From positions 4,339 through 68,338 of IMG/VR virus record IMGVR_UViG_3300020403_000006: a DNA stretch of 64,000 bases. One strand, 5' to 3'. The notes beneath the pieces are model-generated. The model searched no databases, had not been told where the DNA came from, and saw only the letters and a list, made by a program, of their open reading frames with translations. The position numbers and the translations under genes were made by a program. This document shows, piece after piece, positions 26,600 to 47,475 of this stretch. Within the stretch, counting starts at the first letter, position 1. Each line of letters starts with the position of its first letter. Origin of the DNA: a virus (taxonomy: Duplodnaviria; Caudoviricetes).

Positions 26600-26600
26600 C

Positions 26601-28225: not shown

Positions 28226-29944
28226 ATGGCTAGAAACAGAGTAATTTATCAAAGTGAGGCATTATTTGTAAGTCCTAACGCTACTGGGGCTCACTTCATA
28301 TGTGAGGCTTTAACGACTGGACTTGGACCCACAGGACACGACAATGCAATGTCCACGCCTCAATCACCTTTCGGAGGAAGTGGAAATAGCCCCGACTTCA
28401 TGGCTCTCGTTAATCCAATTGGATTAAACCAAGACCCCGCTATTACATGGGGATCGCACAAAGCTGGTACTACTTTGGGTGCGATTAATACTGCTACTAA
28501 AATCGAAAATGCAGCAAGTTTAGGTCTTAATGATTTAGCTAACCTTAGTGGAGCAGCTCTTGAGGCTTTTTCTGGTGCTTTTGGAACAAGCGTCTATCAA
28601 TATGGAGGCCCAGTTGGAGGTCTTAAATCAGCAACTCCCCAGACTACTTTTGGTGGCTTGAACAATACTTCTGGCGATGTCATGCTTTATTTCAATCAAG
28701 CCGCATGGATTGCAGCTAATACCGTCTACGCTCGCAATGATAATGACCCCGCAGTTGGAATTGCAGATAAAAACGTTGTTGGTTATGGTGTATTTATTCA
28801 GCCTTGGAGCGGTACTTACAAAAACTTAATTCAACAAGTCCATAGAGTACAAAGCGCAAACTACAGCTTTACTATTAACAGAACAGATGTAAATACATTT
28901 GGTCAATTGGCTAGAATTGATGCGATTGCTCTTGAGCCGCCCACAGTTAATCTTGATTTTACTTACTTCCCAACAGATGGTTTCAACGAAAGAAATCTTG
29001 GTTTTTACCTAAAGGGTAACGGTAAGGGTGTTGGAATGGGGACAGCCGATTCTAATTCCGCAACCAATCACTTAAAGAGTGACGCTGCAGGAAAGAACTT
29101 CTTCATAGTTACAACTCCAGAATCTACCGATGCTTTCAACACTAACGAAGCTATTGAAAATAGATCTGTTATTGGTTTGGGTAATGGTTTCTTGAGTGAT
29201 TACACCCTTGAGGCTTCTGTTGGATCAATTCCAACAGCTTCCGCAACAATTGAGCTGTATAATGCTAAATCTGATGCTGGAACTACTGGAGTAACTATAC
29301 CTGGTGTAAATCTTCAACAAGGAACACCAGCTTCTGGTATTAACTTCAGCTTAGCTCATCCATCTTCCTTAAGAGGAGATGATCAAGGAGCTTCTCCGAG
29401 CACAGGTCAATTTGGTTACGCAGCTTTATCTGCTCTAAAACCTGGCGACATTACCTTGGAGCTTCCTAACGAGTTATCAATGTTCTCAAAGCTTAGCGGA
29501 GAAGGAGCTATTCATATTCAGAACTTTAGCTTAAGCTTACCACTAAGCAGAAGCCCAATTGATAGACTTGGAACTAGGTTTGCATTCTCTAGAGTTGTTG
29601 ACCTCCCAGTAGTTGCTACAATGAGCGTTAGCGCTTTGATGTCGGAAATTGGAACAGGTAACCTTGCTCTCATCCTTGATGACTGTAAGGAGCATGATGT
29701 CAAGATCAAAATGAAGGGTGGAGTTCCTTGTGTGGGGGGAGAAACATTCGACGCTTTGGATATTGACTTCAAGGGTGCTAGAATAGACAGTGAGTCTATT
29801 TCCTCAGACATTGGAAGCAACAAGAGTGTAGACTTCACATTCACCACTCAAATTGGTGGACCAGAAGACTTACTTCATGGAGTTTTCATATCTGGAGCTA
29901 ACTCTAACGTTATCCCAGAGCATTACAGCATTCCTAATAGATAA
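28226..29944 (+). CDS. Major tail (tube) protein with two tandem tube-like domains and a ~178-aa insertion
   Basis: Directly before the TMP and followed by a terminator; RVQSANYSFTINR and IQNFSLSLPLSR half-repeats; aligns by eye with the 61854 paralog. Confidence 0.8.
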   Translation: MARNRVIYQSEALFVSPNATGAHFICEALTTGLGPTGHDNAMSTPQSPFGGSGNSPDFMALVNPIGLNQDPAITWGSHKAGTTLGAINTATKIENAASLGLNDLANLSGAALEAFSGAFGTSVYQYGGPVGGLKSATPQTTFGGLNNTSGDVMLYFNQAAWIAANTVYARNDNDPAVGIADKNVVGYGVFIQPWSGTYKNLIQQVHRVQSANYSFTINRTDVNTFGQLARIDAIALEPPTVNLDFTYFPTDGFNERNLGFYLKGNGKGVGMGTADSNSATNHLKSDAAGKNFFIVTTPESTDAFNTNEAIENRSVIGLGNGFLSDYTLEASVGSIPTASATIELYNAKSDAGTTGVTIPGVNLQQGTPASGINFSLAHPSSLRGDDQGASPSTGQFGYAALSALKPGDITLELPNELSMFSKLSGEGAIHIQNFSLSLPLSRSPIDRLGTRFAFSRVVDLPVVATMSVSALMSEIGTGNLALILDDCKEHDVKIKMKGGVPCVGGETFDALDIDFKGARIDSESISSDIGSNKSVDFTFTTQIGGPEDLLHGVFISGANSNVIPEHYSIPNR

Positions 29945-30075: not shown

Positions 30076-33000
30076 ATGCCTCTCAAAATACCAACAGTTC
30101 AAACGGGACTAGAAAAGTCCATCAGAAATGCGGTTAAAAATGTAAGCGCTAGGGGTGGTCTTAATTTATCAATAAATGATAGGAATTTCTCTAGACCCTT
30201 AGGTAAAATAACTGGATCTGTTAGTGAATTTAACAAATCGCTAGAAGCATCTAATGCTCGTGTTTTGGCGTTTGGAGCCTCCGTGGGCATGATTCAAGGA
30301 GTGCAAAAAGCATTCGCATCCTTAGTCACAACAACTATAGAAGTAGAAAGAAAACTTACCGAGATAAATGTTGTAATGGGATTAACTAATTCCCAATTAG
30401 AAGATTTTGGAAAAAGTTTATTTAAAGTCGCTAAAAATACCGCACAAAGCTTTGATACAGTAGCTAATGCAGCAACAGAACTAGCAAGACAGGGTTTGGG
30501 AGTCGAAGAGACATTAAGGAGAGCAAATGATGCATTGATATTAACACGCCTAACTGGGCTAGATGCAGCAGCTGCTGTTAGTGGTTTAACGGCGGCATTA
30601 AATACATTTAATAAAGCGGGATTAGATTCGACTCAGATATTGAGTAAAATGGCTGCTGTTGATGTTCAGTTTGCAGTAAGTACTGAAGATTTAATAGATG
30701 CGGTTTCTAGAGCTGGAGCGGTTGCAAATGATGCTGGAGTAAGTTTTGATGAACTTTTAGGTGCAGTTACTGCGGCTCAGCAAATGACAGCTAGAGGAGG
30801 TAAGGTAATAGGTAATAGTTTTAAGACTATCTTTACAAGAGTACAAAGGTCCAGTACTATAAAAAGGCTTGAAGAGTTGGGTATAGCTGTAAGAGACATA
30901 CAGGGTAACACTCTTCCCGCAATTAATGTTTTGCAGAATTTAGCAAAAACTTACGATACATTAGCAGATACAACTAAAGCAGCAGTAGCAGAACAGGTTG
31001 GTGGAGTATTCCAAATAAACATACTAAAAGCGGCAATAAAAGATTTAAGTGCAGAAAATAGTATCTTGGCTAGAGCTACACAAATCTCAGCACAAGCAAC
31101 AGATGAAGCATACAAAAAGAATGAAATTTTAAATAGATCTTTATCCGCCTTAACTTCTCAAGCAGCAACTAGTATAAAGGAACTATCTGGAGTGCTTGGA
31201 GAAATAGCTTTTGCAGATCAAATAAGAGATTATCTAACTTTCATAAAAGATCAAGTTTCTTCTATATCAGGTTTTATAAGCCAAAAAGAAGGAGAAAGTG
31301 CAGGCTCAGATTTTCTTAAGGGTGTTATACGTGGAATTGGTAATGTTTTATCTGGACCAGGGTTATTTCTCACATTATCTATATTGGGAAAATTGTTCGT
31401 TAAAACTTTTTCATTTTTAGCTGGTAGTGGAAAAGAGCTTTTGGGGGTTGTTTCAGCCGCCGAAAAGCAAAAACAAATACAAACAGCTATAGTAACTGTT
31501 TTAAATGAAAATAGTGCTTTACAAAAAAGAATACTTTCACAAGAAGGAAATAGAGCAGCTCAAGAAAAAACCATCTTAACTATATTACAACAACAAGCAA
31601 GAGAACAAGCAAAAATAGCAGCAGCAGCCAGGGCTGTTGCGCCAGGAATATCTCGTGCTGGATTTGGTGGAGACCTAAGAAAAACAAGGAGCGAAGGGCA
31701 TATTCCAAACTATGTATCACCCTCAGAACGCGCTAGCGAGAAAAAGGGAGCTAGAAAAGCGGGGTATACACCTGGTGCAGTTAAAAGTATGAACCTCAAA
31801 GGTGAGGGAAGAATTATCTATAATACAGCTGAAACTGTTAAAAGGTTTAGTGGGCTATCGCAACCAGCAATCATGCCCCCTCAGTCAAGCAGGGCTGGCA
31901 GAAAGTATAAAAAAGCATTTACTGATGTTCATGGAGTAGACCCTTATGCAAATAGAGGGTATATACCAAATTACGCAAGAGGAAGCAGAACTCCTATGGT
32001 ATATAAGCCAACCCCCTATAATTTGGCACATGGTCTTATATACGGAAAAAGAAGAGCTTTAAATCTTGATACTGGTGGAGGTAGACTGCTGAAAGATGCA
32101 TGGCACTCATCAAAGCCCGCCTTGTCTACTAGTACAGAGCTAGACTCCATAAGAACAATTATTTATAAAAAATTTCTATCCAAAAAAGACCCAACATTTA
32201 TAAAACAAGTTGAAGACGCTATGGCTGCCTTTGGAAATACTGTGCCAAGTGCATGGTCTAGAGGTAACGGTTATATTGACGGGATGCTTCTTGATTTAAA
32301 TATGAAAAGGGCTCAGGCAAGAGGGTTAAGCAGTTATCAAAAACTGCCACCAGGAAGAATGCTTGGACCTCAGGATCCTCTCATGGGTGGAGCAATGAGT
32401 CAAGGCATGATTCCGAATTACATGAAAATGCTAGGGCTTAAAGAATTGATGTCTAAAGCTGGTGGCGCTGCAAAAAGTTTAATAACTACACCTTTTAAAG
32501 ACGCTGGGACTCTTATTAAAGGTGGGTACAAAGGAATCATGGGTGTCGAGCACATGCTCAGATCTGGAATTAAAGGAACATATAAAGGTCTTCAGTTTGG
32601 AGAAAAGATGATAAGAGCGGGCCTAGGAAAAGGTTTTGACTTCATGAAAAACTTTCCTCGTACAACCTTATATGGAGGCGGGGGAGGAGCAGGCTTTGCT
32701 TTTCAAGATCAGATAATGGCTGCGATTCAGAAATACGGACCCAAAGCTCTTGAAATGGGCTCGAAAATAGGCAAAGGAGCTTTAGATATATTCCAAAATC
32801 CAACAGCTCATGTAGATTTAATATCTGCTGTGCTTGGCGGGGTTATTCCAGCTGGCGTTTTAGGATTCACTTTATTAGACGATGTCTTAAGGGTAAGAAA
32901 AGATGAAAAAGCAAGACGGCTCAAAGCAGAGAAAAAAGCCGCAGCTGAAAAACTAGGAAAAGAGTTAAAAGAAGGAGGAAAACATAGAGGTAATTTAATG

Positions 33001-36000
33001 GTAAGAGATCTTCCCCCAGAGTTACAAAAAATAGCTATGGGAAGAATGAAAATAATGAATCCCCAGGTTGGGCCAGGAGGTCCTAGAAGCACTAGTTTTG
33101 TTCCTAAATCTATATTAGATGAATTAGGTTTAGCCAGCGGATTTGTACCTAATTATGCGCTGAATATAGCTAGACTTCAGGAGTCTGCGACGTATGTGCG
33201 TGGAAAATTAAACCCGAAGCAAGCTAGATCGCAAGGAAGGTTAAAGGATTTTATATTAAGAAGAGCTAAATTAAATCCTGAAGCAAGAGAGTTTGAGCCG
33301 CCAAAGTTTGACTTAACAATGGCTAGAGATGGAAAGCCTGTTGGGTCTTTAGATAATCCTACTGCATCTAGAGCTAGAGCAGCCGTAATAACATCAGACG
33401 GAAAAACTCACTTGGGATTTTGGCATGATGACATAAGAGATGATTTAGCTAGGCGAAAAATTGATTTAAAGGGAGCAAAAGATTTAGAGCTCTTATGGGC
33501 TAATAAAGGATTTATTCCAAATTATTCAGCTTTTCATTTTGATAAAAATCTTCCTATGTCGATGCCAAAAGCGGGGGATCGAATAACATTTTTGAAAGCT
33601 TTAGAATTTATGCCTGAGCATAAATTAGCACAAGCGATGGATTTATTCCTAAAGGAAACGCAAATGGGGCTGGACATGAAAGCATCTTATCCAGGAATGC
33701 CGATAAAAGATTTCAAAAAACATTTTGGCGGAAGTTTAAGTTTAGACATGGGCTTAAATTATTTAAGCGATAAAAGACAAAAAGAAATATTAAGGAATCC
33801 TGATGTAATGAAGTCTTTCTACAGATATCTTACTGGGAAATCTAGTTCTATAGGAATAGAAAGTGCGCTAACAGCAGACGAGAGAAAATATTTTCTGGAT
33901 AAATACGGAATGATCCCAAGGATGAAAAGTGTTGAAGATGGCTTTGGGCAAACGAAAAAAGACAGATTGAGTTTACTGAGGGAGGATTTCTTGAGAGCGG
34001 GAGAAGGTCCAGGAGGAGGAAAAAAAGGATCGGTAAGAGGTTATATTCAGGAAGCCTTTAAGCAATCAAGAGGAAAACAGAATATTGAAAAACTGCTTGC
34101 CCAAAATCAAGCTTTAGCGCCTCCTCCTGTTTTAGGTTTACCTTATGACCCCGAAAGAAGTTTAACTTTTGAAGAAAGGCGGAGGAGGCTTTACTATAAG
34201 CTTGCACGCTCCAACCCTGATGTATTAAATACTTTGCATAAAGTATATGGTTCTGGTATGAGCAGAACTCCGAAATCAGGATCACTGGAGGGTATTGATA
34301 TGATTATAGATAAAGAAGGTAATGCTAAAAAAATAAGAAATCGATTTGGTGATATAAGCGGAAGATTTAGAGGGGTTGATGCTGACATTGCTCTTCAAAG
34401 AAAAATAGAAGCCCAACATCTCGAAAGCCAATCTAGAGAAAACAAACGCGCGGCAGTACCTGTAGCAAATCAAGTAGCATTAAGACAAATGCTAAAAGAA
34501 AATGCCACAGGTAGTTCTATGATTAATCAACGAGCTTTCGATGATTTTGAAGATATCCTTAAGGACGATAGGACAACAACACGTGAAGCGGAAAAAATGA
34601 TGTCTGGAAGGTTCCAGAAAAGCGATGTTATTGATGAAATAATGAGGGAGAGAGGAGTTCGTCGCAAAAACCTTTATGGAGAAAATTTTAGTAAATTAGG
34701 AAGGAGACCCTTAATAAGGGATAAGAAAAATATAAACTTAAATGCTCTTCCTACATTAGATGATTTATTGGCATTAGGTAAAGAAGGAGGGTTACCAAAA
34801 AATATCCCAGGATTACCTTCTATGCGTGAATTGTTAAACATGAAAAGGTTTGGGCATAGCCCCAAAAATCTATCAAATTTACCTACTTTAAAAGAGCTTT
34901 TAAAACTTAGAAAATTTAGGAGTTTTGGGAACATTCCTAATTTTGCATTAAGAATAAATACATCTAAAATAAAGCCAATATCTAAACCTCAAGGAAGAAT
35001 ACATGGAAGTAAATATGATGAAACTATAGGCTTGTCTCAATTAGATGAAATTTTACGAGCAAGAACTTTTTCATCAATAAAATACAGACCTAAAGGACAA
35101 GACATTGAGGAGCTTGTTTTATCTAAAGCCAGAAGCGGAGTACATCAATACAAGAAAGGCAAACCCCCACCCAAGGGATACGAAAGTTGGAATGAATTCG
35201 ATTTAGCTACTGGAACAAGAGTGATTCATGCAAGTTCTGCTGGTAAAGGTTCTGGGGCATATAGAAGATTAGCTCTAAATAGAGTTCACAGTGTGGTGTC
35301 TGGAGGAAAGCATTATAGAGTTGATCCTTTGATGGCTAGTCATGGGCTTATTCCTAATTTTATCAATATAAATCCTGCATTTTCTAAATTCAGGAAAATG
35401 GGATCTCAATCAATGCCATCTTCTGGAGGAGGTCCAAGATTGGGAGCTTTTTCAGACTCAGTGAAATATAGTAGCAATAATTTAGTAGATACATTTGCTA
35501 AGGGAATTTTAAATGGAAAGCTAAAATTAAGTCAAGCATCAAAAGAAATAAAAGAAACCGCTTCTTTTGTTGGTGGTAAAAGCGGATTTGAGTTATTGCA
35601 ATCATGGAGTAAACTTTTAGGAAATAAAACATTTAAATCAAAAATAAATAAAGGCATGATGAGCTCAGGGCTCATTCCTAATTTTGCAAATCTTGGAAAA
35701 TTAATAGCAGCTCATAATGCCAAGAAAAGAGCCAATTTAGCTATAAGAGAGCCAGCGGTTCAGCTTGGCGTGGTAGGAATACATCCTGGAAAAAACCCAT
35801 TGACAGATAGTTATATAAAAGCTTACAAGCAGGGGAAAATAACCGAAAAAGAACTTTATGAAATGATGCGGGGTCAAGCTGCTATGCTAAGAGGTCAACC
35901 AGGAAAGTTTGAGGCTCAAATGGACTATGTTGCAATGAATATAAAAAATGCTCCAGGTCAGATAAGAAGAAAAAATATTAATGACATGAGATCTGGAGCT

Positions 36001-39000
36001 ACAGATGCATTCAAGGGATTCCTTCCAAATTATGCAAGCCTTTTTTCGGAAGGCGCATCTAAAATATTATCAAAAAATCCTGAATATGGAGCAGCCGTAA
36101 AAGACGCAATATCTAGGGAAGCTTCTTTTGGCTTAACTCCCAAGGTTGTGCAGGCGCCTTCTTTAAAAAGCTCAACTAACCCTGGTCTTGCCGTGGTAAA
36201 TCAAGAACAAGAAGGTGGGTCTTTAGCTAAAGCTAGAACCTTACATGGAGGGTTAAACCCAAAACAAAAAAGCGGTGTTCCTAATTATGCTTCACCAGTC
36301 AGAAGCATTGGTGGCGCTGAAGTAATGTCGATGAGGGCTGGAGTAAGGCAAGCTATTAGCATGGATGGTTTAAAAGCTATGCAGGATTCCTTTTATAGGG
36401 CCGCCTCTGCTATAGATAAAATGACCGCCTCAACACAGAGGGGAAGGCAATTCTTAAAGGCATTGTCAAAAGAATACGGAAACAATGCTAACCTAATTAA
36501 GGAAGCAAATATAAGAGAAAAAGCTAAGTCAAGAGGTTTAACCTCAAAAGATGGGATTGAGAGAAACCAATTCGCCAGACAAATGTTCAGGAAAGATGCA
36601 TTAAAGGAAATAGCTGGCACTAAAGGGCCGCTTGGTACATTAGCATCAAACTTATTGCAAACACGTGGAGGGAAATTTGAAGAAGCATTACTATTCCAAC
36701 AAGGTGTGGCTAAAAAATCTGGAGATAAAGAAACCTTAAACGCATTAAGAAAACTAGATAGCGCAATGGAAAAAAGCGCAAGGAATGCGATGGATGGTCC
36801 AAAAAATTCCGCCAGAATGATAGAAAGAGCTTTAAAGCAAAATCAAGGAGAACTTAAAGCTTTGGAGAAATTTCAAGGAACGGGCGGATTCAACAAGGGT
36901 ACAGCTTCTAAGTTTTTTGCTCAAGAGTTTATAAGGGCTCGTGATCCTAATTTCACTGGAGGTCAAAGAGAAGCTAATAGCATAATGGCTATGATGGGAA
37001 AAGCTGGACAAAAGGAGTTCAGAAATTTTCTTCAAGAAAAAGGGGTAATGTCTTCAAATAAAGCCCTAGCTTCAGCTGGATTACAGTCTGGTCAGTTTAG
37101 ACAATTAGTTGGAGGACCTGCTGGAACCTCTTCAATAGCAGCAAATCAATTTATAAGACAATTAGGTGATTTTCAAAAAGCTTTAGAAAAAGGAGACAAA
37201 AGAACTGCTAGAGCTTTAGAAAGATCACTTCTTTCAGGTGCCGTAGGAATAGGTAGAGATAGTCAATCAGCTAAGCAATTACAGCAACTAGTGCAAGCAT
37301 CAAAAGATAATGCTAAAGAAAATGCGAAAAAAGTAAACAATACAGCCGCGCAAACAGCCGCAAGAGATAGATTAAGAGGTCAAGCTGGCGGAGGTATGGC
37401 TGCTAAATTTTTCAGCAGTATTTTAGGCAATCAAATAACGGGATCATTTATGTCTGGTGCATCTGGGGCTGGCCTTAGGGGGTCTGGTTTTGGAACTGGA
37501 ATAGCTAACAGGGCAGGGAGGGTGAGTGGATCACTTATGGGTGCTGCTAGAAATTTTGGAACAAGTGGTGCTCTTGGTAAATTTGGTGGGCAAATGGGGT
37601 TAGGAATGTCTTTTATTGCACCAATGGTTGCTGGCATGGTGTCAAACAAACAAGATAGAGCTGAAAGAGCTGTATTTAATAAGCAAACAGGATCGTTTGA
37701 AGTGCAAGATAGAGGTGGCGATGTAGCTTCTAGTGTACTAATGGGTGCTGGTCTAGGGGCTTTGTTTGGTCCAGCGGGAATGATAGTTGGTGCCATGGGT
37801 GGATTTTTCGCATCAATGAAAAAAGCAACCCTAACGATTGATGAGCAAATCAGGATGAGGGAAAAGGAGATTGCGGTAATAGGTCAAAATGTTCAAGCCA
37901 CTCAAAATATACAAAATTTGCAAAATGCAAGAAGGGCGGCTTTTGAAAAAGGAAACAAAGGAGAGACCGCTAAACTTGATGCAATGATAAACAGAACTCT
38001 AGCTGGGATTACTGACAAAGAGGTTCTTAATAAGGTAGCCATAGCAGCTGGAAACGAAGACTCTATGGCTGTTTTGCAAAAAGAATTGCAAGATCAAATG
38101 ACTATAGCCACAAGCACTCAGAATTTTGGAATGGCTATTAAAAATAAAAATTCTAGAAATGCTGGTGTTGCAATAGGATCAATTATAGCACAGGGGATTA
38201 GAGATGGAGACACCGATGAAAGTGAGGCTCTCGCTCTACTATCTAATATAAGGAAAAATGTAGAAAGTAGAAAAAGAACTGGAGCAATGCTTAGTACTGA
38301 GCAGATGAACGAGATCAGAACCAAAGCTGAAGGCAGGCAGGGCATGACAAGCATGGGAACTGTTGGGGGTGGTCTTGCGGCAGGGCTTGTTACGGCAGGT
38401 GTTGCTACTAGTATGAGTGGTGTTGGCCTCCCCCTTGGTTTAGTTATGACTGCAATTGGTGCTGCCTTAGGAGCTGGAGCGGGCCGTTACTTCGAATCAG
38501 AAAACGCTCAAAATACACTCAGGGAAGCGCAAGCCATGGGTGTAGACGAAATCATGCAATTTGATAAGTTGGTTCAGGCTGGGGTTATAACCGAATCAGC
38601 CATGAACTCTATGGTTGCTGCATTTAAAGAAGGCGAAGTGGGAATCGAAGACATTGCAAGAGAGGCAGAATCAGCAGTAAGAGATTTTAATAATGTTAGA
38701 AAAGCTAGTGAATCTGCATCCAAGGCACTATTTAATCTTGATAAAAAATTAAAATTAGCTTTATCGAGAATGACTTTAAAACTTGAGGTTGAAAAAATAC
38801 AAAATTCTGCAGCTATTCAGGCAGAAAGTTCTAATACTCAATTTTTGTCTCAGTTTATGTCTCCAACTCGTGCTTCTGAGTTTATGGCTAATCAGCAGAG
38901 CGGCATACTTTCTAGAGAAGTAGGATTTAAAATGGATGAATTTGCTGGTCAAGCAGATATAGATTTTCTTAGAAAGTTTAATTCAAGTAGTATGAATTTA

Positions 39001-42000
39001 ACATCAGTCACGCCTAGACAAAAGCAGGACTTGGTGGATGCGGTAGAAAGACGAGGAATTGGAATTGCGGAAGATTCTATCGCCTCTAGAGCTTTCAGGG
39101 GAACAATAAAGGATCAAACACTTACGAGAGATCAAGTAAATCAACTCGCTTCAATTGTCGGAATTAAAGATAGTCCATATGGAGATCAAGTGGATGTAAT
39201 GCGCACCATGCCATTCAATACTCAAAACGGAGTACGAACATCTCCTCTATTTACCACATTTAATCAACTGGATGCAGGAAAGAAAGATGAAGCTAGAGGT
39301 AAAATTGCTAATATTTTAGGAGTAAGCTCTGATCAAGATATATCTGCCGCATTGAAACAGGTTGATTTGTTTAGCTCAGTCAACACTAGGAACCTTGATC
39401 CTAAAACAACCCGAAGAGTTGATTTTGAAGATTCAATTATTGGGCGAGGTGGAGCAATTGAATATGATTACTTAGCGCAATTTAATAAAAAAGATGCCGA
39501 AGCGGCAGATGAGCTACTGGAAGAAAGAGATAGGCAGAAAAAGGTACTTGAAGCTCAAATAACAGCAATGAGAAAAGGTGCTAGTATACAAATAGCACAA
39601 AACAGAATACAAGCTAAAATACAAGAAGATCTTGAATTAATGCAAGCTCGTGTAAGAACTAGAAATATTGATAGAGAAACATCATTAATAAGAGAAAAGG
39701 GAGATAGTACGGGTAGGGTTAGTAATTTTAAAGCTTTAACTAGTGAAAGGTTTAGGGGCTCAAGGGATGATGCTTCTGAGGCAGCTAGACAAAAAGAATT
39801 AAGGAAAAAAATATTTCAGGAAGAATTAAAAATTCAAAAAGCAGAAAATCTTGAGACATTTAAAAAAGAAGCGGAAAGGTTGATGTCGGAAAAAAATCTA
39901 ATAGATGCATTAAATAATCTAAGAGATACCATTTCACCGATATTAGATATCGCTGCATCCGAAAGCGGTGGTCCAAAAACATCTACAGCACAGATGGTTC
40001 CTAGTTCGCCTTCTGGCGCTGGCGCTGGCGCGGGTGGTGGGTCTGGCGGTAGGTCTGGTGGCGGCTCATCTTCTACAGTTTTAAATGCCAATATAAATGT
40101 TTCTACCGCAGACAAAGCTTTAGCTGCAGGCGACAAAATAGCAAAAAGAACTGCATCCATAGATGAACTTCAAAAGCAAGTAGATGCTAAAGCAAACGAG
40201 GTAAGAACCAAAAGAGCGAAATTAGATTTTTCAAAAGCAAGGGTTAAGCCCGTGGAGGAACATCTTAATCGATTATTTCACCTTGCAATGCAACCTTATG
40301 ATGGTGCCTCTGGTACTCATGCTGGGCAAGGAGTTTTTAAGGATAGTGAGATGTTTAATGCTCAGGAAAAGTTTATTAAAAAGTATGCAGATCAAATAGC
40401 TAAAGATACTGGAAGGGGTGATATTCTTTTTGATGAGCATGGTCACATTCGCCCCCTACAGTCAAATCCAGTAAGGAGATCTGGGCAAGTACTTGACCCC
40501 GCAACTGGAGCAGGAAAAGGAAGTGTGCAATTATTAGAGGAGTACAAAGATAGCTTGAAGGCAAACTTGAACATAAAAGGACAAACAGAAGGTTTAGCTA
40601 CTGCAGAAAAAGAACAAAAAACACTTGAAGCTCAATTATTAGCATTGAAAGACGAGCAAGGAAGAGCCATAGCCGCAAGAAATGCAATGCAATCAGGGCA
40701 AGCTAGAGATGATATAGCCCAAAAGCTAAAAGGTCAAACTGTAGATATACAAAGCATTGATATTGGAATGACTAATCTAATGCTATCTGCTATAGATTCA
40801 AGCGGAAGTATAGAATCAGCTTTAGAAGAAGTCAATAAAGCAGTCACAATTGCTGGAAACAATGATCCAGTTGGAATTTTAGCGGAAAAAGCCCAAGGCC
40901 TCAAATCGATATCTGAGCAAATGAATCAAGGTATTCGAGAAATGGAAAGAAGATTTAATTTGCGTGAAGCCAAAATTGCTGTGGAAGACTTTAGTAAAAC
41001 ATTAAAGTTTTTTGATTATAGTAGAAGTACATTTTCTGAAATAAATGCATTGTCCAATGCAGATATTAATGCTCAATCAGCTAGCTCTGCATTAAGGAAT
41101 GCAAGTGGTCAAATTCAAAGGCAAAAAGAATTTGAAACAATAATGGGCGACCCAACTGCAACTAATTTACAAAAAGCGGAAGCTAGAATAGCTTTAGAAT
41201 CTCAAACAATAGGAACTCAGTCACAAAGAGATAGGTTTGTTCAAATAAGTCAGGAGGAAGCTGACTTGTCTGCCCAACTTACTACAGCTCAATTTCAAAA
41301 AACAGAAGCTATCGCCAACAAGGATAAAGCGGCTGAAAATAAGGCAAATAAGACAATTACAAGTCTTGAATCACAACTAAAAGTACTTAATAAAAATGCT
41401 GAACTTCTTGCTCTCGCTATGCAGAGAACAACCCCAAGAGGAGAGGGGCGAGTAGTTGATGAGATTAGAACTAATTTAGGTAATGGCCTACAAGGAGGTT
41501 TTGCTGCAGTAGAAAGCTCTGCTGAAGGTATATACACAAGACTAGGGCAAGACATGCCGTATGCTATGAGAAACGGCATGGTTGATGCAATGCAAGCTGC
41601 TCTTAGTGGAGCAGATGATTTATCAGGAAAGTTGTCTCAAATAGGAATATCTTTCTTGCAAATGATACAGAGGGCTTTCCTTGAAAGTGCTGCTAGCAGA
41701 GTAGTTGGCGCAATTGGCTCTGTTACTGGTCTAGGTAGAGCCGAAGGAAATAGCGGAGGTATCGTTAGTGGAGGTAGTGGGGTTAAGGACGATGTCCCTG
41801 CGATGCTAATGGGAGGAGAGTATGTTATTAAGAAATCATCTGTTGACAAATATGGGGTTAATTTCCTAGAACAGTTAAACAATGGAACCCTAACTGGATA
41901 TAGAAACGGAGGAGGTGTAAACTTGGCAATAGGTGCTCCTAGGGCAGCTGAAAGAGAAGAGTATACAGATGAAAATAAAGACGGAAATGTAACTAGATAT

Positions 42001-42852
42001 AGAGTTAAGAAAAAAGAAGTGGGAATTAATCGAGCATTAACTGGTTATGCAATATCTAAAGACAGAAAAATACAAGAATTCTTTAGAGATCAAGAAACGC
42101 AATTCAATGAAGACTTGTCAACAAAAAGACAAGAAGAAATGCGAGCAGAAAACAAAAAAAGAAGAAAGAAGGCTGAAAAAAATGCCTTATTAGGAATAAT
42201 TTACGGAATAGTCGGAGGCGCTCTTTTAAGCAAAGGTATAGATTTTGCAAAGAATAAATACAAGCAATCCTCTTTTGGTCAAAGACGTTTCGATAAAAAA
42301 ACCGCAAAAGATTTACAAACAAAAGGGACTACAAGCATTCCAGGCGGAAGCTTGACTGACAAATTTGAGTCTCCTTCGGATAGAGCTAGAGTACAGCAAT
42401 TCTATCAAAACATGTTAACTAAGCCTGATCAAAACGGGCAAGTTGCAGGCCCAATAGTAACGGCTAGAACAATGTGGCAGAACAACCAAGGAGGGTCGCT
42501 AGATGCTAACAAGGTTGAATTAAGGAGGAATAAAGGCGGTGGAGTTCCCGCAAGACTCACAGGGGGCGAGTATGTCATGAGCCCATCAGCAGTAAAAACA
42601 TACGGAGCCTCAATGATGAAAAGTATCAATAACGGCTCTTACAATGCTCCTTCCTCTTCGGGCTCTTCTAATCAACCCCAAAACACCGTAACTCATGGCG
42701 ATGTAAATATTTCCATTAATGTTTCAGACAATGGAAGCACGACAACCACAGCAAGCAACCCATTAAATACAAGAGAATTTGCAAGCAAAGTAAAAAATGC
42801 CGTAATTGAAGTTATAGGAAAAGAAAAGAGGGTCGGAGGGAAGTTGCGATAA
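30076..42852 (+). CDS. Tape measure protein, 4258 aa, with internal module array
   Basis: N-terminal TP901-type TMP domain (EINVVMG...ELARQG...LTAALNTF); Gly/Ala-rich TM-like segments near 37.6 and 38.4 kb; two C-terminal VPAxLxGGEYV motifs; lies between tube and tip genes. Confidence 0.92.
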   Translation: MPLKIPTVQTGLEKSIRNAVKNVSARGGLNLSINDRNFSRPLGKITGSVSEFNKSLEASNARVLAFGASVGMIQGVQKAFASLVTTTIEVERKLTEINVVMGLTNSQLEDFGKSLFKVAKNTAQSFDTVANAATELARQGLGVEETLRRANDALILTRLTGLDAAAAVSGLTAALNTFNKAGLDSTQILSKMAAVDVQFAVSTEDLIDAVSRAGAVANDAGVSFDELLGAVTAAQQMTARGGKVIGNSFKTIFTRVQRSSTIKRLEELGIAVRDIQGNTLPAINVLQNLAKTYDTLADTTKAAVAEQVGGVFQINILKAAIKDLSAENSILARATQISAQATDEAYKKNEILNRSLSALTSQAATSIKELSGVLGEIAFADQIRDYLTFIKDQVSSISGFISQKEGESAGSDFLKGVIRGIGNVLSGPGLFLTLSILGKLFVKTFSFLAGSGKELLGVVSAAEKQKQIQTAIVTVLNENSALQKRILSQEGNRAAQEKTILTILQQQAREQAKIAAAARAVAPGISRAGFGGDLRKTRSEGHIPNYVSPSERASEKKGARKAGYTPGAVKSMNLKGEGRIIYNTAETVKRFSGLSQPAIMPPQSSRAGRKYKKAFTDVHGVDPYANRGYIPNYARGSRTPMVYKPTPYNLAHGLIYGKRRALNLDTGGGRLLKDAWHSSKPALSTSTELDSIRTIIYKKFLSKKDPTFIKQVEDAMAAFGNTVPSAWSRGNGYIDGMLLDLNMKRAQARGLSSYQKLPPGRMLGPQDPLMGGAMSQGMIPNYMKMLGLKELMSKAGGAAKSLITTPFKDAGTLIKGGYKGIMGVEHMLRSGIKGTYKGLQFGEKMIRAGLGKGFDFMKNFPRTTLYGGGGGAGFAFQDQIMAAIQKYGPKALEMGSKIGKGALDIFQNPTAHVDLISAVLGGVIPAGVLGFTLLDDVLRVRKDEKARRLKAEKKAAAEKLGKELKEGGKHRGNLMVRDLPPELQKIAMGRMKIMNPQVGPGGPRSTSFVPKSILDELGLASGFVPNYALNIARLQESATYVRGKLNPKQARSQGRLKDFILRRAKLNPEAREFEPPKFDLTMARDGKPVGSLDNPTASRARAAVITSDGKTHLGFWHDDIRDDLARRKIDLKGAKDLELLWANKGFIPNYSAFHFDKNLPMSMPKAGDRITFLKALEFMPEHKLAQAMDLFLKETQMGLDMKASYPGMPIKDFKKHFGGSLSLDMGLNYLSDKRQKEILRNPDVMKSFYRYLTGKSSSIGIESALTADERKYFLDKYGMIPRMKSVEDGFGQTKKDRLSLLREDFLRAGEGPGGGKKGSVRGYIQEAFKQSRGKQNIEKLLAQNQALAPPPVLGLPYDPERSLTFEERRRRLYYKLARSNPDVLNTLHKVYGSGMSRTPKSGSLEGIDMIIDKEGNAKKIRNRFGDISGRFRGVDADIALQRKIEAQHLESQSRENKRAAVPVANQVALRQMLKENATGSSMINQRAFDDFEDILKDDRTTTREAEKMMSGRFQKSDVIDEIMRERGVRRKNLYGENFSKLGRRPLIRDKKNINLNALPTLDDLLALGKEGGLPKNIPGLPSMRELLNMKRFGHSPKNLSNLPTLKELLKLRKFRSFGNIPNFALRINTSKIKPISKPQGRIHGSKYDETIGLSQLDEILRARTFSSIKYRPKGQDIEELVLSKARSGVHQYKKGKPPPKGYESWNEFDLATGTRVIHASSAGKGSGAYRRLALNRVHSVVSGGKHYRVDPLMASHGLIPNFININPAFSKFRKMGSQSMPSSGGGPRLGAFSDSVKYSSNNLVDTFAKGILNGKLKLSQASKEIKETASFVGGKSGFELLQSWSKLLGNKTFKSKINKGMMSSGLIPNFANLGKLIAAHNAKKRANLAIREPAVQLGVVGIHPGKNPLTDSYIKAYKQGKITEKELYEMMRGQAAMLRGQPGKFEAQMDYVAMNIKNAPGQIRRKNINDMRSGATDAFKGFLPNYASLFSEGASKILSKNPEYGAAVKDAISREASFGLTPKVVQAPSLKSSTNPGLAVVNQEQEGGSLAKARTLHGGLNPKQKSGVPNYASPVRSIGGAEVMSMRAGVRQAISMDGLKAMQDSFYRAASAIDKMTASTQRGRQFLKALSKEYGNNANLIKEANIREKAKSRGLTSKDGIERNQFARQMFRKDALKEIAGTKGPLGTLASNLLQTRGGKFEEALLFQQGVAKKSGDKETLNALRKLDSAMEKSARNAMDGPKNSARMIERALKQNQGELKALEKFQGTGGFNKGTASKFFAQEFIRARDPNFTGGQREANSIMAMMGKAGQKEFRNFLQEKGVMSSNKALASAGLQSGQFRQLVGGPAGTSSIAANQFIRQLGDFQKALEKGDKRTARALERSLLSGAVGIGRDSQSAKQLQQLVQASKDNAKENAKKVNNTAAQTAARDRLRGQAGGGMAAKFFSSILGNQITGSFMSGASGAGLRGSGFGTGIANRAGRVSGSLMGAARNFGTSGALGKFGGQMGLGMSFIAPMVAGMVSNKQDRAERAVFNKQTGSFEVQDRGGDVASSVLMGAGLGALFGPAGMIVGAMGGFFASMKKATLTIDEQIRMREKEIAVIGQNVQATQNIQNLQNARRAAFEKGNKGETAKLDAMINRTLAGITDKEVLNKVAIAAGNEDSMAVLQKELQDQMTIATSTQNFGMAIKNKNSRNAGVAIGSIIAQGIRDGDTDESEALALLSNIRKNVESRKRTGAMLSTEQMNEIRTKAEGRQGMTSMGTVGGGLAAGLVTAGVATSMSGVGLPLGLVMTAIGAALGAGAGRYFESENAQNTLREAQAMGVDEIMQFDKLVQAGVITESAMNSMVAAFKEGEVGIEDIAREAESAVRDFNNVRKASESASKALFNLDKKLKLALSRMTLKLEVEKIQNSAAIQAESSNTQFLSQFMSPTRASEFMANQQSGILSREVGFKMDEFAGQADIDFLRKFNSSSMNLTSVTPRQKQDLVDAVERRGIGIAEDSIASRAFRGTIKDQTLTRDQVNQLASIVGIKDSPYGDQVDVMRTMPFNTQNGVRTSPLFTTFNQLDAGKKDEARGKIANILGVSSDQDISAALKQVDLFSSVNTRNLDPKTTRRVDFEDSIIGRGGAIEYDYLAQFNKKDAEAADELLEERDRQKKVLEAQITAMRKGASIQIAQNRIQAKIQEDLELMQARVRTRNIDRETSLIREKGDSTGRVSNFKALTSERFRGSRDDASEAARQKELRKKIFQEELKIQKAENLETFKKEAERLMSEKNLIDALNNLRDTISPILDIAASESGGPKTSTAQMVPSSPSGAGAGAGGGSGGRSGGGSSSTVLNANINVSTADKALAAGDKIAKRTASIDELQKQVDAKANEVRTKRAKLDFSKARVKPVEEHLNRLFHLAMQPYDGASGTHAGQGVFKDSEMFNAQEKFIKKYADQIAKDTGRGDILFDEHGHIRPLQSNPVRRSGQVLDPATGAGKGSVQLLEEYKDSLKANLNIKGQTEGLATAEKEQKTLEAQLLALKDEQGRAIAARNAMQSGQARDDIAQKLKGQTVDIQSIDIGMTNLMLSAIDSSGSIESALEEVNKAVTIAGNNDPVGILAEKAQGLKSISEQMNQGIREMERRFNLREAKIAVEDFSKTLKFFDYSRSTFSEINALSNADINAQSASSALRNASGQIQRQKEFETIMGDPTATNLQKAEARIALESQTIGTQSQRDRFVQISQEEADLSAQLTTAQFQKTEAIANKDKAAENKANKTITSLESQLKVLNKNAELLALAMQRTTPRGEGRVVDEIRTNLGNGLQGGFAAVESSAEGIYTRLGQDMPYAMRNGMVDAMQAALSGADDLSGKLSQIGISFLQMIQRAFLESAASRVVGAIGSVTGLGRAEGNSGGIVSGGSGVKDDVPAMLMGGEYVIKKSSVDKYGVNFLEQLNNGTLTGYRNGGGVNLAIGAPRAAEREEYTDENKDGNVTRYRVKKKEVGINRALTGYAISKDRKIQEFFRDQETQFNEDLSTKRQEEMRAENKKRRKKAEKNALLGIIYGIVGGALLSKGIDFAKNKYKQSSFGQRRFDKKTAKDLQTKGTTSIPGGSLTDKFESPSDRARVQQFYQNMLTKPDQNGQVAGPIVTARTMWQNNQGGSLDANKVELRRNKGGGVPARLTGGEYVMSPSAVKTYGASMMKSINNGSYNAPSSSGSSNQPQNTVTHGDVNISINVSDNGSTTTTASNPLNTREFASKVKNAVIEVIGKEKRVGGKLR
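31696..36288 (+). repeat. Ten dispersed Gx[IVL]PN[YF] motifs inside the TMP
   Basis: Motif Gly codons at 31696, 31957, 32404, 33139, 33508, 34927, 35344, 35668, 36016 and 36274. Confidence 0.9.
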
Positions 42853-43683: not shown

Positions 43684-44441
43684 AATATATAAGGCATCAA
43701 GAATGTGAGGTTGAGATTAATCAACAAAAAATATTTGCAAAAAGTGCAAGGCTTACTGCTTCATCGAGCGCGACAGAAGAGCGTGTTTACGGTGGAGATT
43801 TAAGATATTACACTGCTTCGTCTCCCCTTTCAGCTTCTGTTGATTTTAATTACTATATAACAGGTAAAGAGGATTTTATAGGAAATTTAACTGGAGAGCT
43901 ACCATGCTCTGGCAGGTTTTGCGGTATAGAGTTTTCTGGTGCATACCTTTCTAATTATTCTATAAGAATTGAAGCTTACAAGCCCGTCGAGTTTAATGCG
44001 ACTCTTTCTATATACAGCGGATACAGGGGCTTAACAGAAACTGGATCATTTGGAGGGGCATCAACTGGGTTAGCGAATGGAGCTTATACCGAATTAATAA
44101 ATTTTAATCAAAATAGTATTGGAATAGATTTTCCTCAAACAATAACTTATGATGTCGATTGTCAGAGAACACCTAATTACATAATAGGTTCAGAGTTCCC
44201 TGAAGATGTAAGATACGGATCTGTAAAAAGAAGAATGTCTGTAGCTGGAGAAAATATTGGTGCTGTTATAAATTTTTCAGGTAGAGATTTTGGAGAAATA
44301 CTAGTGTCACCCAGAAATATAGACTATGCAGCAAGAGGTCAAACCTTAAGATGTAAAGGCATAATAAATTCTCAAAATTTATCTATGTCTTCTAACGGAT
44401 TACTTGCTGGTTCAGTGGAGGTAATGGAGAGCTTGAGATGA
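43680..44441 (+). CDS. Tail-tube-like baseplate protein (paralog)
   Basis: GAYLSNYSIRI and ITYDVDCQRTPNYIIGS parallel the previous gene. Confidence 0.55.
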   Translation: MKYIRHQECEVEINQQKIFAKSARLTASSSATEERVYGGDLRYYTASSPLSASVDFNYYITGKEDFIGNLTGELPCSGRFCGIEFSGAYLSNYSIRIEAYKPVEFNATLSIYSGYRGLTETGSFGGASTGLANGAYTELINFNQNSIGIDFPQTITYDVDCQRTPNYIIGSEFPEDVRYGSVKRRMSVAGENIGAVINFSGRDFGEILVSPRNIDYAARGQTLRCKGIINSQNLSMSSNGLLAGSVEVMESLR

Positions 44442-45412
44442 TGTTTAATAGTGGACATTTTTGGAATCTAGAAAAAGATTTTTATAGCGAATCAACGAAT
44501 GCTAGCCCCTCAAACTACAACTCGTACAAAGAATTTATTACAGGCTCAAAAGTAGATAGTGTATTGAAAAATTTTGAATACGAAGATCCTTTTAATTTTG
44601 TACCCTCTTATGGTTCGTCAGCTTCTGTTGGTTTTTATTCTAATATAAATGAATTTGGAGATAATTATATCAACTCTAATCAGGGTGGAGTATTAAACAG
44701 GGTAGCTCTTAGTCTTGATTTAAATTTTACAAACAGAGGTAATGCGGAATCAGAGAGAATAATAAATTATATAAAATCTAAAGAGGGGGGAGAAAAATTC
44801 ATATTTCAACCAACTCCCAATGCAGGACTCTCTCCACAAGATGCCTATAAATCTTTGTATTCTATTCAACCATATTTCGCTCAAGAATTTTCTTGTGACA
44901 ATATTGATATCGAGCACGAATATATAGATCACAATAATATTTCATTATCATTCACTAATGAAGATTACTCACAATTTTCTGTTAGAAATTTATTAAGAGT
45001 AAATAGCATGCCTCAAGAGAAAAAAGACATAATAGACGATTATTCTTCTAGATACCACTTGGACATAGAGCCTTCTTATACCATAAAGAGAGACGAGCCA
45101 CTTCATTTAACTAGATTTAGATTTAATAGCTCAAGAACTCATGATGGCGAAGGTGGTGTAAATAGATCTCAAACAAATATAGAATTAAATTACAATGGAA
45201 TTACTGATGAAATATTATTAAAACTATTAGCGTTCTTTTACTCAAAACAAGGACACGAAACATTTACATTTACCCTTAAAGAACCAGAAGAAAAAACATT
45301 AAATTTTTTCTGTCACACTGTTCAGCATACATATTTATTTAAAAACTCAAATGATTTGACGGTTACACTAGAGGAAGATTACATAAGAAGGAGATTAAAT
45401 TGGGGGTATTGA
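44438..45412 (+). CDS. Minor tail protein with duplicated gpM/Dit-like domain
   Basis: Two halves, each PSY...LNF/Y...IL.Y/FF.SK.G.E.F.F...F.C; precedes the gpL-like gene. Confidence 0.6.
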   Translation: MMFNSGHFWNLEKDFYSESTNASPSNYNSYKEFITGSKVDSVLKNFEYEDPFNFVPSYGSSASVGFYSNINEFGDNYINSNQGGVLNRVALSLDLNFTNRGNAESERIINYIKSKEGGEKFIFQPTPNAGLSPQDAYKSLYSIQPYFAQEFSCDNIDIEHEYIDHNNISLSFTNEDYSQFSVRNLLRVNSMPQEKKDIIDDYSSRYHLDIEPSYTIKRDEPLHLTRFRFNSSRTHDGEGGVNRSQTNIELNYNGITDEILLKLLAFFYSKQGHETFTFTLKEPEEKTLNFFCHTVQHTYLFKNSNDLTVTLEEDYIRRRLNWGY

Positions 45413-45448
45413 TCGAAAATAACTAATTACAATTTATTATAATAAGAC

Positions 45449-46360
45449 ATGGCTTTCAAGAAAACAGAGAATATAAATCAAGAAATTTTTGGAAATAGCA
45501 AAAGTTTAATGATTACTTTATGGGAGATATCTCAAATAGCGAATAGTGATGAAGTTATAAGGTTCCATGGAGGCGTTAATAATATGCATTACTCTTTATT
45601 TTTTGATAGTAAGGAATATTTTTATATACCATATGAAGGCTCTGATTTTAGTACTAGATCTGACGGAGGATTGCAAAGACCAAAAATAAAAATTATAAAT
45701 TTTTCGGGGTTTTTATCTAGATATTTAATCGGAAAAGATGATATGCTTAAAGCTAAAGTAGTTCGAAAGAGAACTTTCTTAAGGTTTCTCGATAAGGAAA
45801 ACTTTTTGGATTACGACAACGAGAGGCAATATTGGGCAAAGGAAGGTGTTAACCCAGACCCATCATCAACATTAAGACCTGATGTTTGGTATATAAATCA
45901 AAAAACTGAAGAAAATAAATATTTTGTAGAATTTGAATTATCAAATGCTTTGGACCTAGAGGGTGCGACTTTACCAAGAAGACAAATTATAAACAATTAT
46001 TGCACATGGAAATATAGAGGTAAAAACTGTGGTTATAATGGAAACCCTTGTGCTGATTATAATAATGTTAAATTTGATAAAACTTCTTTAAATCCAAGAG
46101 GTTTATGGCAGGAAGGTCAATCCTATGCTCAACAAGATGTTGTTTATCTTGTTACAGAAGAGGGGAATGACACCAGAAATGTAGTATATATATGTACAGA
46201 AGCTCACACAGCAACTCCGCAAACAAAACCGTCAGTAAATACAAGCAAATGGGTAACAGATGCTTGCTCTAAAACCTTAACTGGTTGCAAATTAAGATTT
46301 CCAGTGTCCTGGAAAGAAGGTATTCCTTTTGGTGGGTTTCCAAGTAGTAGAATATTTTAA
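45449..46360 (+). CDS. Minor tail protein L-like with CBM5/12-like insert
   Basis: RPKIKI, RKRTFLRFLD, FELSNALD, CTWKYRGKNCGY, DACSKTLTGCKLRF, PFGGFP; four cysteines as in lambda gpL. Confidence 0.88.
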   Translation: MAFKKTENINQEIFGNSKSLMITLWEISQIANSDEVIRFHGGVNNMHYSLFFDSKEYFYIPYEGSDFSTRSDGGLQRPKIKIINFSGFLSRYLIGKDDMLKAKVVRKRTFLRFLDKENFLDYDNERQYWAKEGVNPDPSSTLRPDVWYINQKTEENKYFVEFELSNALDLEGATLPRRQIINNYCTWKYRGKNCGYNGNPCADYNNVKFDKTSLNPRGLWQEGQSYAQQDVVYLVTEEGNDTRNVVYICTEAHTATPQTKPSVNTSKWVTDACSKTLTGCKLRFPVSWKEGIPFGGFPSSRIF

Positions 46361-46746
46361 TGACAAAAAAAATTATAGATGAAATCAAGTTAATATCTAG
46401 GAATAATGAACCTTTTGAAGCTTGCGGTTTTATTTTAAAAAAAAATAAAAAATATTTAACAGTGGAATGTGAAAATATTTCCGAAAATCAAGAAACTAAT
46501 TTTGAAATATCAAGTAAAGAGTATTTATTTGCATTTAAAAATTATGAAATAATTTCCATTTTTCACTCTCATGTTATAGGTGATGAAACCTTCTCCCAAG
46601 AAGATTTAAATATTTCAAATGAGCTGGATATACCAATTATAGTGTACAGCCTAAAAACAAATAATATAAATTTCTACAACCCATCAAAAAAAAGACACAA
46701 GAAAATTAATTCTTTTTTTCAAAAAGAAGGTGCTGTTGTTGTGTAA
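46360..46746 (+). CDS. Tail assembly protein K-like JAB/MPN peptidase (no NlpC/P60 domain)
   Basis: EACGFI plus intact HSH-x7-S-x2-D JAMM motif. Confidence 0.85.
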   Translation: MTKKIIDEIKLISRNNEPFEACGFILKKNKKYLTVECENISENQETNFEISSKEYLFAFKNYEIISIFHSHVIGDETFSQEDLNISNELDIPIIVYSLKTNNINFYNPSKKRHKKINSFFQKEGAVVV

Positions 46747-46767
46747 ATTATATTAAGGCATAAGGAT

Positions 46768-47472: not shown

Positions 47473-47475
47473 ACC

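Follow-up and report, generated by a model that had tools for sequence, protein, structure and literature searches.

One short peptide bounds a shuffled array of modules in the giant tape measure protein of a siphophage

The subject of this analysis is the tape measure protein (TMP) encoded in a 64,000-nucleotide window of DNA from an uncultured aquatic phage (IMG/VR record IMGVR_UViG_3300020403_000006, positions 4,339 to 68,338, part of a 68-kb viral record with ~35% G+C). Between a conserved N-terminal domain and a long C-terminal part, this protein carries nine modules delimited by ten copies of one short peptide, and comparison with relatives indicates that the inner modules have been gained, lost, duplicated, reordered and swapped between lineages, with the junctions falling at the peptide. 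We consider it probable, from sequence comparison and structure modelling, that the region is a swappable payload array within an ejected TMP. As to what reads the peptide, a protease is favoured and docking to a virion partner is nearly as likely. The array of the window has the order C-E-G-H-D-B-L-M-A, and the gene is laid out as follows.

30076..42852, + strand: TMP gene, 4258 aa, 0 Cys (open reading frame, PF10145, PHROG)
30076..31695, + strand: conserved N-terminal TMP domain, aa 1-540, up to motif 1 (PF10145; comparison with relatives)
31696..31713, + strand: motif 1, GHIPNY (regular expression scan)
31714..31974, + strand: module C, 87 aa, small alpha/beta domain, closes with motif 2, GYIPNY (family comparison, AlphaFold2 model of a homologue)
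31975..32421, + strand: module E, 149 aa, conserved, closes with motif 3, GMIPNY (11-sequence alignment)
32422..33156, + strand: module G, 245 aa, glycine-rich, closes with motif 4, GFVPNY (composition, family comparison)
33157..33525, + strand: module H, 123 aa, closes with motif 5, GFIPNY (family comparison)
33526..34944, + strand: module D, 473 aa, closes with motif 6, GNIPNF (family comparison)
34945..35361, + strand: module B, 139 aa, compact alpha/beta, closes with motif 7, GLIPNF (AlphaFold2 model)
35362..35685, + strand: module L, 108 aa, closes with motif 8, GLIPNF (family comparison)
35686..36033, + strand: module M, 116 aa, closes with motif 9, GFLPNY (family comparison)
36034..36288, + strand: module A, 85 aa, closes with motif 10, SGVPNY, at 36271-36288 (family comparison, AlphaFold2 model of a homologue)
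36289..42852, + strand: C-terminal 2187 aa of the TMP, without the motif, with three transmembrane-like (TM-like) segments (sequence scan)

The gene at 30076-42852 encodes, as judged from its matches, the TMP of a large lambda/T5-like siphophage. The protein matches PF10145 (PhageMin_Tail, the TP901-1-type TMP) at aa 117-310 with an E-value of 9.6e-26 and 91 bits against a cut-off of 33, as well as PHROG TMP families (best E 6e-49), and related viral records that are rated complete measure 180-211 kb. The N-terminal domain is 60-91% identical between the window and its close relatives. In the C-terminal part the TM-like segments lie at aa 2553-2578, 2776-2803 and 4037-4055, and two ...VPA.L.GGEYV... 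repeats occur at aa ~3894-3937 (nt ~41755-41886) and ~4154-4187 (nt ~42535-42636). The fuller element, G-G-x-VPA-x-L-x-GGEYV...G...N.G, is near-invariant in 26 relatives in its two copies, with a TM-like segment in between.

Scanning the TMP with the regular expression G-x-[IVL]-P-N-[YF] located nine sites, at aa 541, 628, 777, 1022, 1145, 1618, 1757, 1865 and 1981; a tenth motif, S-G-V-P-N-Y, occupies aa 2066-2071, and together the ten span aa 541-2071 (nt 31696-36288). Shuffling of the protein gave an expectation of 0.07 [IVL]PN[YF] sites, against the 10 observed. Elsewhere in the six frames of the window the full pattern occurs once, at nt ~2308 on the plus strand, where it is probably untranslated since it lies opposite a minus-strand open reading frame (ORF). 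At the nucleotide level motifs 6 and 8 have the identical stretch CATTCCTAATTTTGCA in common, while motifs 7 and 8 match at 17 of 18 positions. The first-pass annotation, made from the window's sequence, had placed ten motifs at these positions and had pointed out the identities among motifs 6, 7 and 8, and our scan bore out both. Its module lengths hold for eight of the nine, the last being 85 rather than 86 aa, and its description of the modules as rich in Lys and Arg agrees with their composition (all basic, K+R 12-20%, isoelectric points of 9.6-10.3). It had further proposed that the motif is possibly a recombination anchor. The DNA coding for the motifs is only marginally more alike than codon usage predicts (9.47 against 8.98 of 12 nt, P 0.046), which leaves this idea weak at the DNA level; the constraint at these sites appears, from the sequences, to act mainly on the peptide and not on the DNA. 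Within 31696-36288 the motif Ile codon is ATT in 6 of 7 cases, whereas the rest of the gene uses ATA for 59% and ATT for 31%.

The same peptide recurs throughout a large family. Among 5.8 billion proteins searched, 35 giant TMPs of 2459-4845 aa came up, with 3-13 motif copies apiece, and at least 557 related TMP loci are present in IMG/VR; 80 of these loci were fetched, and the motif was present in all of their near-complete TMPs. For family comparison we used 110 non-redundant related arrays, and here too every TMP has 3-13 copies. The logo built from 575 unique sites in these arrays reads A-[SAN]-x-G-[FLHY]-[IV]-P-N-[FY]-[AS], with ~7 informative positions, and its information drops steeply on either side of this ~10-residue peptide. 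The variants tolerated are Asn to Ser (16 sites), the aromatic residue to Leu or Met (5) and Ile/Val to Met (3), while the Pro is practically never replaced. The motif is kept among phages whose TMP N-terminal domains share only 26-45% identity. It is absent from ~690,000 residues of non-TMP ORFs flanking TMP genes, where the apparent matches all lay in TMP fragments, and from distant TMPs of Firmicutes prophages. Neither the window array nor a C-F-A array found a match by translated search (tblastn) in 50,697 deposited phage genomes, and no locus of the family has a cultured representative.

Some contigs of the family add observations of their own. Two degenerate junctions, GFVPSY between fused modules J and H (L109:6526-7389) and GFIPNM between fused modules G and H (L024:8044-9168), are natural tests of which motif positions may change. 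In L017:10772-16085, a long-read contig from a metagenome-assembled genome, the TMP is split into at least three overlapping ORFs with motifs in each, probably through uncorrected frameshift errors rather than a natural split. The contigs L001-L020 had been binned into metagenome-assembled genomes of many phyla, most often Flavobacteriales and otherwise Halobacteriovorax, Neomarinimicrobiota, Nitrospinales, Verrucomicrobiales, Cellvibrionales and one Bacillota; this wide spread probably reflects mis-binned phage DNA.

We defined modules as the stretches between motifs and clustered them by BLAST (E 1e-4, 50% coverage), a procedure that misses distant family ties and in which degenerate motifs merge neighbouring modules, as with G+H in L024. 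Alignments spanning several modules were discarded because MAFFT stacked unrelated modules on the end motifs, and per-module or colinear alignments were used instead. The 524 inter-motif modules fell into 104 families, 57 of them singletons, and the 110 arrays display 61 distinct module orders. Module C holds first place in 69 of the 110 and module A last place in 90, and the commonest array is a minimal C-F-A. Among the 30 arrays with any inner module of the window there are 24 orders, for example C-H-D-B-t-G-E-A (P0004), C-E-f-H-D-B-M-L-A (P0006, with L and M reversed relative to the window), C-E-E-B-D-H-G-A (P0007) and C-B-J-D-K-A (P0023). Spacing between motifs varies from 12 to 1368 aa (median 124).

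The edges of homology fall at the peptide as well. Of the BLAST homology blocks between TMPs, 63% start 2-12 aa before a motif Asn and 54% end 1-12 aa past one, against an estimated random expectation of 7-8%, and indels in the E and B alignments concentrate beside motifs. Moreover, the identities within one TMP are mosaic. Module D of the window is 43% identical to that of its nearest relative, though their N-terminal domains are 91% identical, while it is 62% identical to that of a more distant relative whose N-terminal domain is 75% identical; the window's H is 90% identical to the H of P0004, which stands at another array position. This mosaic implies that whole modules have been exchanged as well as rearranged. 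Mutual information between motif variant and neighbouring module was similar for the upstream and downstream sides, a measure confounded by relatedness.

We turned to structure prediction and profile searches for what the modules might be. By hhalign the end modules C and A are distant homologues (probability 95.6%, E 1.2e-8, a score inflated by the motifs at both ends). Three module types were modelled with AlphaFold2, using a 30-sequence alignment for a C-F-A array and a 15-sequence alignment for B. In the C-F-A homologue, C and A are both small alpha/beta domains with core predicted local distance difference test (pLDDT) values of 72-90 and 69-89, and all four motifs lie in or beside low-confidence stretches (pLDDT ~50 or less) just outside the cores. 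Module B of the window was modelled at pLDDT 70 with a predicted TM-score of 0.63, and both of its motifs were below 50. In these models C and A of the relative and B of the window fold on their own, and the motifs are predicted to sit in flexible linkers outside the folded cores. The best VIA-align matches of B were Sm/SH3-like barrels (WYL domains, Hfq; Z 4-5), and Foldseek against the PDB returned nothing at E <= 0.001; the model weakly suggests a small Sm/SH3-like barrel, a likeness that does not suffice for assignment to a family. When the C-F-A model was used for fold searches, matches came only from the poorly predicted F helices (Z up to 6.9), and BFVD gave nothing usable. Module G contains a conserved glycine-rich hydrophobic TM-like stretch at aa 911-938. 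Mean column identity reaches 57% in E (11-sequence alignment) and 48% in B, with many invariant residues. A 'staple' idea, in which successive motifs would pair and loop out the modules, was dropped, as the AlphaFold2 monomer of C-F-A had no confident motif-motif contact.

Enzyme-like content was recognised in modules of relatives. One module contains an SNase domain (Pfam E 2.2e-6, above cut-off). A second is GNAT-like, with a PF00583 match at E 0.006, six weak PDB matches that are all N-acetyltransferases, and an R-G-x-G-Y-G motif. Module F carries a conserved E...D...(D/E)xK pattern and looks PD-(D/E)xK-like by that residue pattern alone; Pfam assigned no family in the 30 C-F-A arrays. In the window Pfam matched none of E, G, H, D, L and M, and none of the nine modules corresponds to an enzyme family; PDB sequences yielded nothing significant in profile searches with E, B, D, C, A, H and G, and the ESM Atlas gave no usable match for E and D. 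These results refine what the first-pass annotation had made of the modules. It had held them to be mutually unrelated, which fails for the first and last, and had proposed comparing relatives, in which end modules are indeed kept while inner content and order vary at motif boundaries; its swappable array is well supported by the 61 orders and by the motif-bounded homology blocks. Its suggestion of effector cargo finds backing in the SNase, GNAT-like and PD-(D/E)xK-like modules of relatives but not in the window, where no module matches a known enzyme, and the fold and profile analysis per module that it recommended yielded compact folds for C and A (in the homologue) and for B, with no family named.

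The array shares one further property with its carrier. The window TMP has 0 Cys in 4258 residues, against a mean of 1.0% in the other 34 ORFs of the window (P ~1e-19), and only 10 of 332,780 residues are Cys in the 110 TMPs of the family. For the 104 module families the count is 3 Cys in 91,646 residues, with none in the nuclease-like and GNAT-like modules. Control TMPs that lack the motif are likewise Cys-poor (0-3 per 1562-2331 aa), and scarcity of Cys thus seems to belong to TMPs as such and to have been adopted by all cargo families; it is perhaps a general and little-noted property of TMPs. Such avoidance is expected if the modules take the route of the TMP, through a narrow lumen and into an oxidising compartment, probably unfolded. 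It therefore favours co-ejection of the modules with the TMP, as support and not as proof.

In the reading that we favour, the modules would be a payload and the peptide a processing site. Separate small basic modules form an array between the N-terminal TMP domain and the long TM-bearing C-terminal part, bracketed by the homologous end modules C and A and with one peptide in each flexible linker. In the virion the modules would occupy the tail lumen; at infection they would exit together with the TMP, before or with the DNA, and then act at the envelope or on nucleic acids, the sites of action that are suggested by the SNase, PD-(D/E)xK-like and GNAT-like modules of relatives and by the TM-like G and barrel-like B of the window. 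A conserved protease would cut the chain into modules at the peptide, as in a viral polyprotein. Processing is favoured because the motif stands at every domain boundary, is predicted to be flexible and is TMP-specific, and that the peptide is a protease cutting site is, on this sequence and model evidence, a tentative proposal. A plug-and-play injection train, in which a small Cys-free domain placed between two peptides would be packed, expelled and released by a conserved reader, seems more doubtful than probable.

Several observations weigh against this reading. The window TMP has no HExxH, no GDSG and no peptidase Pfam match, although a divergent peptidase fold could escape such searches. 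The trypsin-like protease at 11898-14831 (P0037) was rejected as a general reader of the motif, since it is absent from 14 of 15 related records, 3 rated complete. At least six motif positions are conserved, which is above most polyprotein sites and equally fits a binding peptide. An effector role gains nothing from module E, which has no stand-alone homologue among proteins of 78-251 aa, or from module B, whose 38 matches in 1.84 billion representatives are only giant TMPs or their fragments, at positions 86 to 1409; and E, G, H, D, L and M of the window have no recognisable function. In the studied precedent, gp96 of Thermus phage P23-45, the enzyme stays in the full-length TMP in virions (PMC10770324).

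The peptide might alternatively be bound and not cut, a reading we hold to be rather unlikely in its own right though nearly as likely as cutting. Here each motif would dock to a virion partner, either the lumen face of the tube or an assembly chaperone, and would hold each non-helical module in place within the tail or assist growth of the tube around it. Without being released, the modules would act while still covalently joined to the TMP and tethered to its channel, much as has been put forward for the virion RNA polymerase of P23-45. For a cut site, ~7 informative positions that admit only conservative changes make a long conserved stretch; the motif is confined to TMPs, and its retention at 26-45% N-terminal identity fits a co-inherited phage partner. 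The lumen of tail tubes is acidic in character, which basic modules would suit. In both the window and its relatives there is no tail-chaperone gene between the presumed tube gene and the TMP gene, and gp96 is uncut in virions. The docking reading is, however, at odds with the irregular spacing of the motifs and with the lack of the motif in the C-terminal 2187 aa, a part that must occupy this tube too, and no partner was identified. Least probable of all the readings is self-cleavage of the chain at the motif Asn by succinimide formation, as in the asparagine peptide lyases of nodavirus and tetravirus coats and of EscU/FlhB. A near-invariant Asn followed by Phe or Tyr resembles the tetravirus site between Asn and Phe, and the reaction needs no protease, which fits the failure to find one; yet Ser replaces Asn in 16 of ~620 junction sites, such as the regular junction between J and H in L109, and these lyases need folded surroundings for catalysis, whereas flexibility is predicted for the motif. 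Self-cleavage is thus very unlikely.

Two other readings place the role of the peptide in the host or deny the array a payload. The peptide might mimic the client motif of a host periplasmic chaperone of the peptidyl-prolyl isomerase (PPIase) type, such as FkpA or the P1 parvulin domain of SurA, with the linkers recruiting the chaperone as the Cys-free chain enters the periplasm and the modules being kept soluble or unfolded until the inner membrane is crossed. The TMP of phage HK97 reportedly sets that phage's need for FkpA. According to the papers that cite Cumby et al. 2015, HK97 genome injection requires this periplasmic PPIase (PMC5099701, PMC7229145), and the motif core [FYHL]-[IV]-P-N-[FY] corresponds to positions 3-7 of WEYIPNV, a phage-display peptide that binds E. 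coli SurA P1 with a Kd of 1-14 uM (PDB 2PV1) at a site called conserved (PMC11401910). A practically invariant Pro and the avoidance of Cys, which fits an oxidising periplasm, are consistent with the idea; a universal host factor would account for conservation across phages of many hosts, and the bins of these contigs are nearly all diderm lineages. However, the motif departs from the stated SurA preference, Ar-X-Ar-X-Pro (among 534 sites the W1 position is aromatic in 4% and the Y3 position in 49%), and motif and SurA peptide share only Y/F-I-P-N-hydrophobic. The likeness rests on one selected heptamer for the SurA of E. coli, which may not be the host's, and nuclease and acetyltransferase modules have no obvious periplasmic role. 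A complex prediction of E. coli SurA (residues 21-428) with module C scored 0.02 against a mark of 0.32, which speaks neither for nor against binding. We regard this reading as improbable. Still less probable is that the array is a fast-evolving spacer that adds ruler length and no payload, its peptide being mainly a recombination hotspot or a scar kept by descent. Most window modules lack a recognisable function and the DNA coding for the motif varies a little less than expected from codon usage (P 0.046), as a spacer would allow; but the modules are well conserved as proteins (E and B above), the cores of B and C/A fold in the models (pLDDT 70-90), some modules are enzyme-like, the peptide is conserved as amino acids while its codons vary, and a scar would not hold seven positions over 575 sites.

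The surroundings of the TMP gene are those of a siphophage tail module, with the following features.

28226..29944, + strand: 572-aa gene, kept in relatives, presumed major tail tube protein (position and synteny)
44438..55947, + strand: lambda-like tail-tip genes as a block (gene order, matches, relatives)
44438-45412, + strand: gpM-like (tail-tip cluster)
45449-46360, + strand: gpL-like (tail-tip cluster)
46360-46746, + strand: gpK-like JAB peptidase, HSH-x7-S-x2-D (tail-tip cluster)
46768-47472, + strand: gpI-like (tail-tip cluster)
47476-55947, + strand: gpJ-like (tail-tip cluster)

The 572-aa gene has no Pfam or PHROG match and is presumed to be the tail tube gene from its position only. 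Two small conserved genes separate the TMP gene from the gpM-like gene, and relatives have the same tail-tip gene order, with PF05939, PF05100, PF14464 and PF13550. The gpK-like protein (128 aa) has an intact JAMM metalloprotease motif and, we presume from comparison with lambda gpK, lacks the NlpC/P60 half; peptidases of the JAB family characteristically cut after Gly-Gly. ORFs 26135-26599 and 26538-27269, which lie upstream of the presumed tube gene, overlap by 62 nt in a +1 frame relation, as they do in L104, while in L105 they are adjacent and in frame; a recoding site of the tail-chaperone type is possible, with a pattern that is inconsistent among relatives. The trypsin-like protein at 11898-14831 has 977 aa, a chymotrypsin-fold His/Asp/Ser triad (TNAHV, CDAAL, GGDSGS) and a long C-terminal part rich in Tyr, Trp, Asn and Gly; it adjoins portal/head genes, has no Pfam match, and has a relative in 1 of 15 related records. 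At 9232-11877, two genes upstream of the presumed portal gene (14920-16920), stands an 881-aa DUF285 repeat protein (Pfam E 1.7e-89) that also matches PHROG families of unknown function.

Among the nearest known systems is gp96 of P23-45, a 5002-aa TMP with an active virion RNA polymerase at its N-terminus (PMC10770324). Like the window protein, it is a giant siphophage TMP whose N-proximal part does not belong to the ruler; its functional domain is carried in the virion and used at the start of infection, as the modules of the window would be. Unlike the window, gp96 has one enzyme and no delimiting peptide, no shuffling has been reported for it, and it is uncut in virions. We saw no sequence relation between the two, the window having a single DxDxD match (DGDTD), but no homology search was made. 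The polyvalent proteins of phages and conjugative elements, for which proteolytic release of domains has been proposed (Iyer et al. 2017, PMC5512222), are likewise giant, multi-domain and variable in their mosaic content, and are delivered together with DNA, a delivery that for the window we can only infer. A zincin-like peptidase and anti-restriction domains are typical of them, whereas none was found in the window TMP, and neither a common delimiting peptide nor fixed end modules are described (PMC5512222). In that paper tape measure proteins are never mentioned (0 occurrences). Sle1-type TMP-related effectors of actinobacterial contractile injection systems also pack a TMP-derived scaffold with an exchangeable functional domain into a tail-like tube (PMC13277306), but they have one C-terminal functional domain and no repeated delimiting peptide, and belong to an injection system and not to a phage. 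The TMP of mycobacteriophage TM4 has an Rpf-like motif (Piuri and Hatfull 2006, as cited in PMC5099701), and T5 pb2 a metallopeptidase motif with muralytic activity (PMC10038345). These are extra functional segments in a ruler, as in the window, although each is single and directed at the cell wall, with no bounded, shuffled array.

TMP cleavage as such occurs in lambda, where gpH matures to gpH*. In T5, pb2 is cut after R1127 during tail morphogenesis into pb2* and pb2C, a maturation cut that separates an enzymatic domain, and the TMP is expelled at infection (PMC10038345); T5 differs from the window in having just one site, close to the C-terminus and unlike the motif in sequence, and in lacking an array. 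If the cutting is real, there would also be a likeness to MARTX toxins and viral polyproteins, in which a train of exchangeable effectors is released at repeated short sites. Those systems bring their own protease (CPD in MARTX, 3C/NIa-type in viral polyproteins), whereas the vehicle of the window would be a phage tail and no such protease was found. A literature search found no paper joining 'IPNF' with 'tape measure'. None of the systems compared combines a bounded array, one delimiting peptide, end modules that are fixed and an order that is free. Since function-bearing TMPs and mosaic delivered proteins were already known, we rate the architecture as new within a known kind; new here are the Cys result, the homology of C and A, the spectrum of motif variants, the evidence that the trypsin-like protease is no general reader, and the SurA lead.

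TMPs are usually seen as rulers and channel formers, and here about a third of the protein is a bounded, exchangeable region of probable payload with rules of its own: one delimiting peptide, two fixed end modules and no cysteine. If the modules are delivered, the 104 families would be a catalogue of proteins that act before phage gene expression, with nucleases and acetyltransferase-like, membrane-active and nucleic-acid-binding-like domains entering when host defences are decided. Were this true, hundreds of uncultured aquatic phages would possess a phage counterpart of MARTX-type effector arrays, and about a hundred unstudied domains for takeover or anti-defence in the first minutes of infection would come with a portable delivery tag. 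The peptide would be a testable handle, perhaps also one for loading phage tails with foreign proteins. Should the modules remain attached, it would instead mark a new tail-assembly contact, and whether the chain is cut or remains whole, the outcome would be new biology for long-tailed phages.

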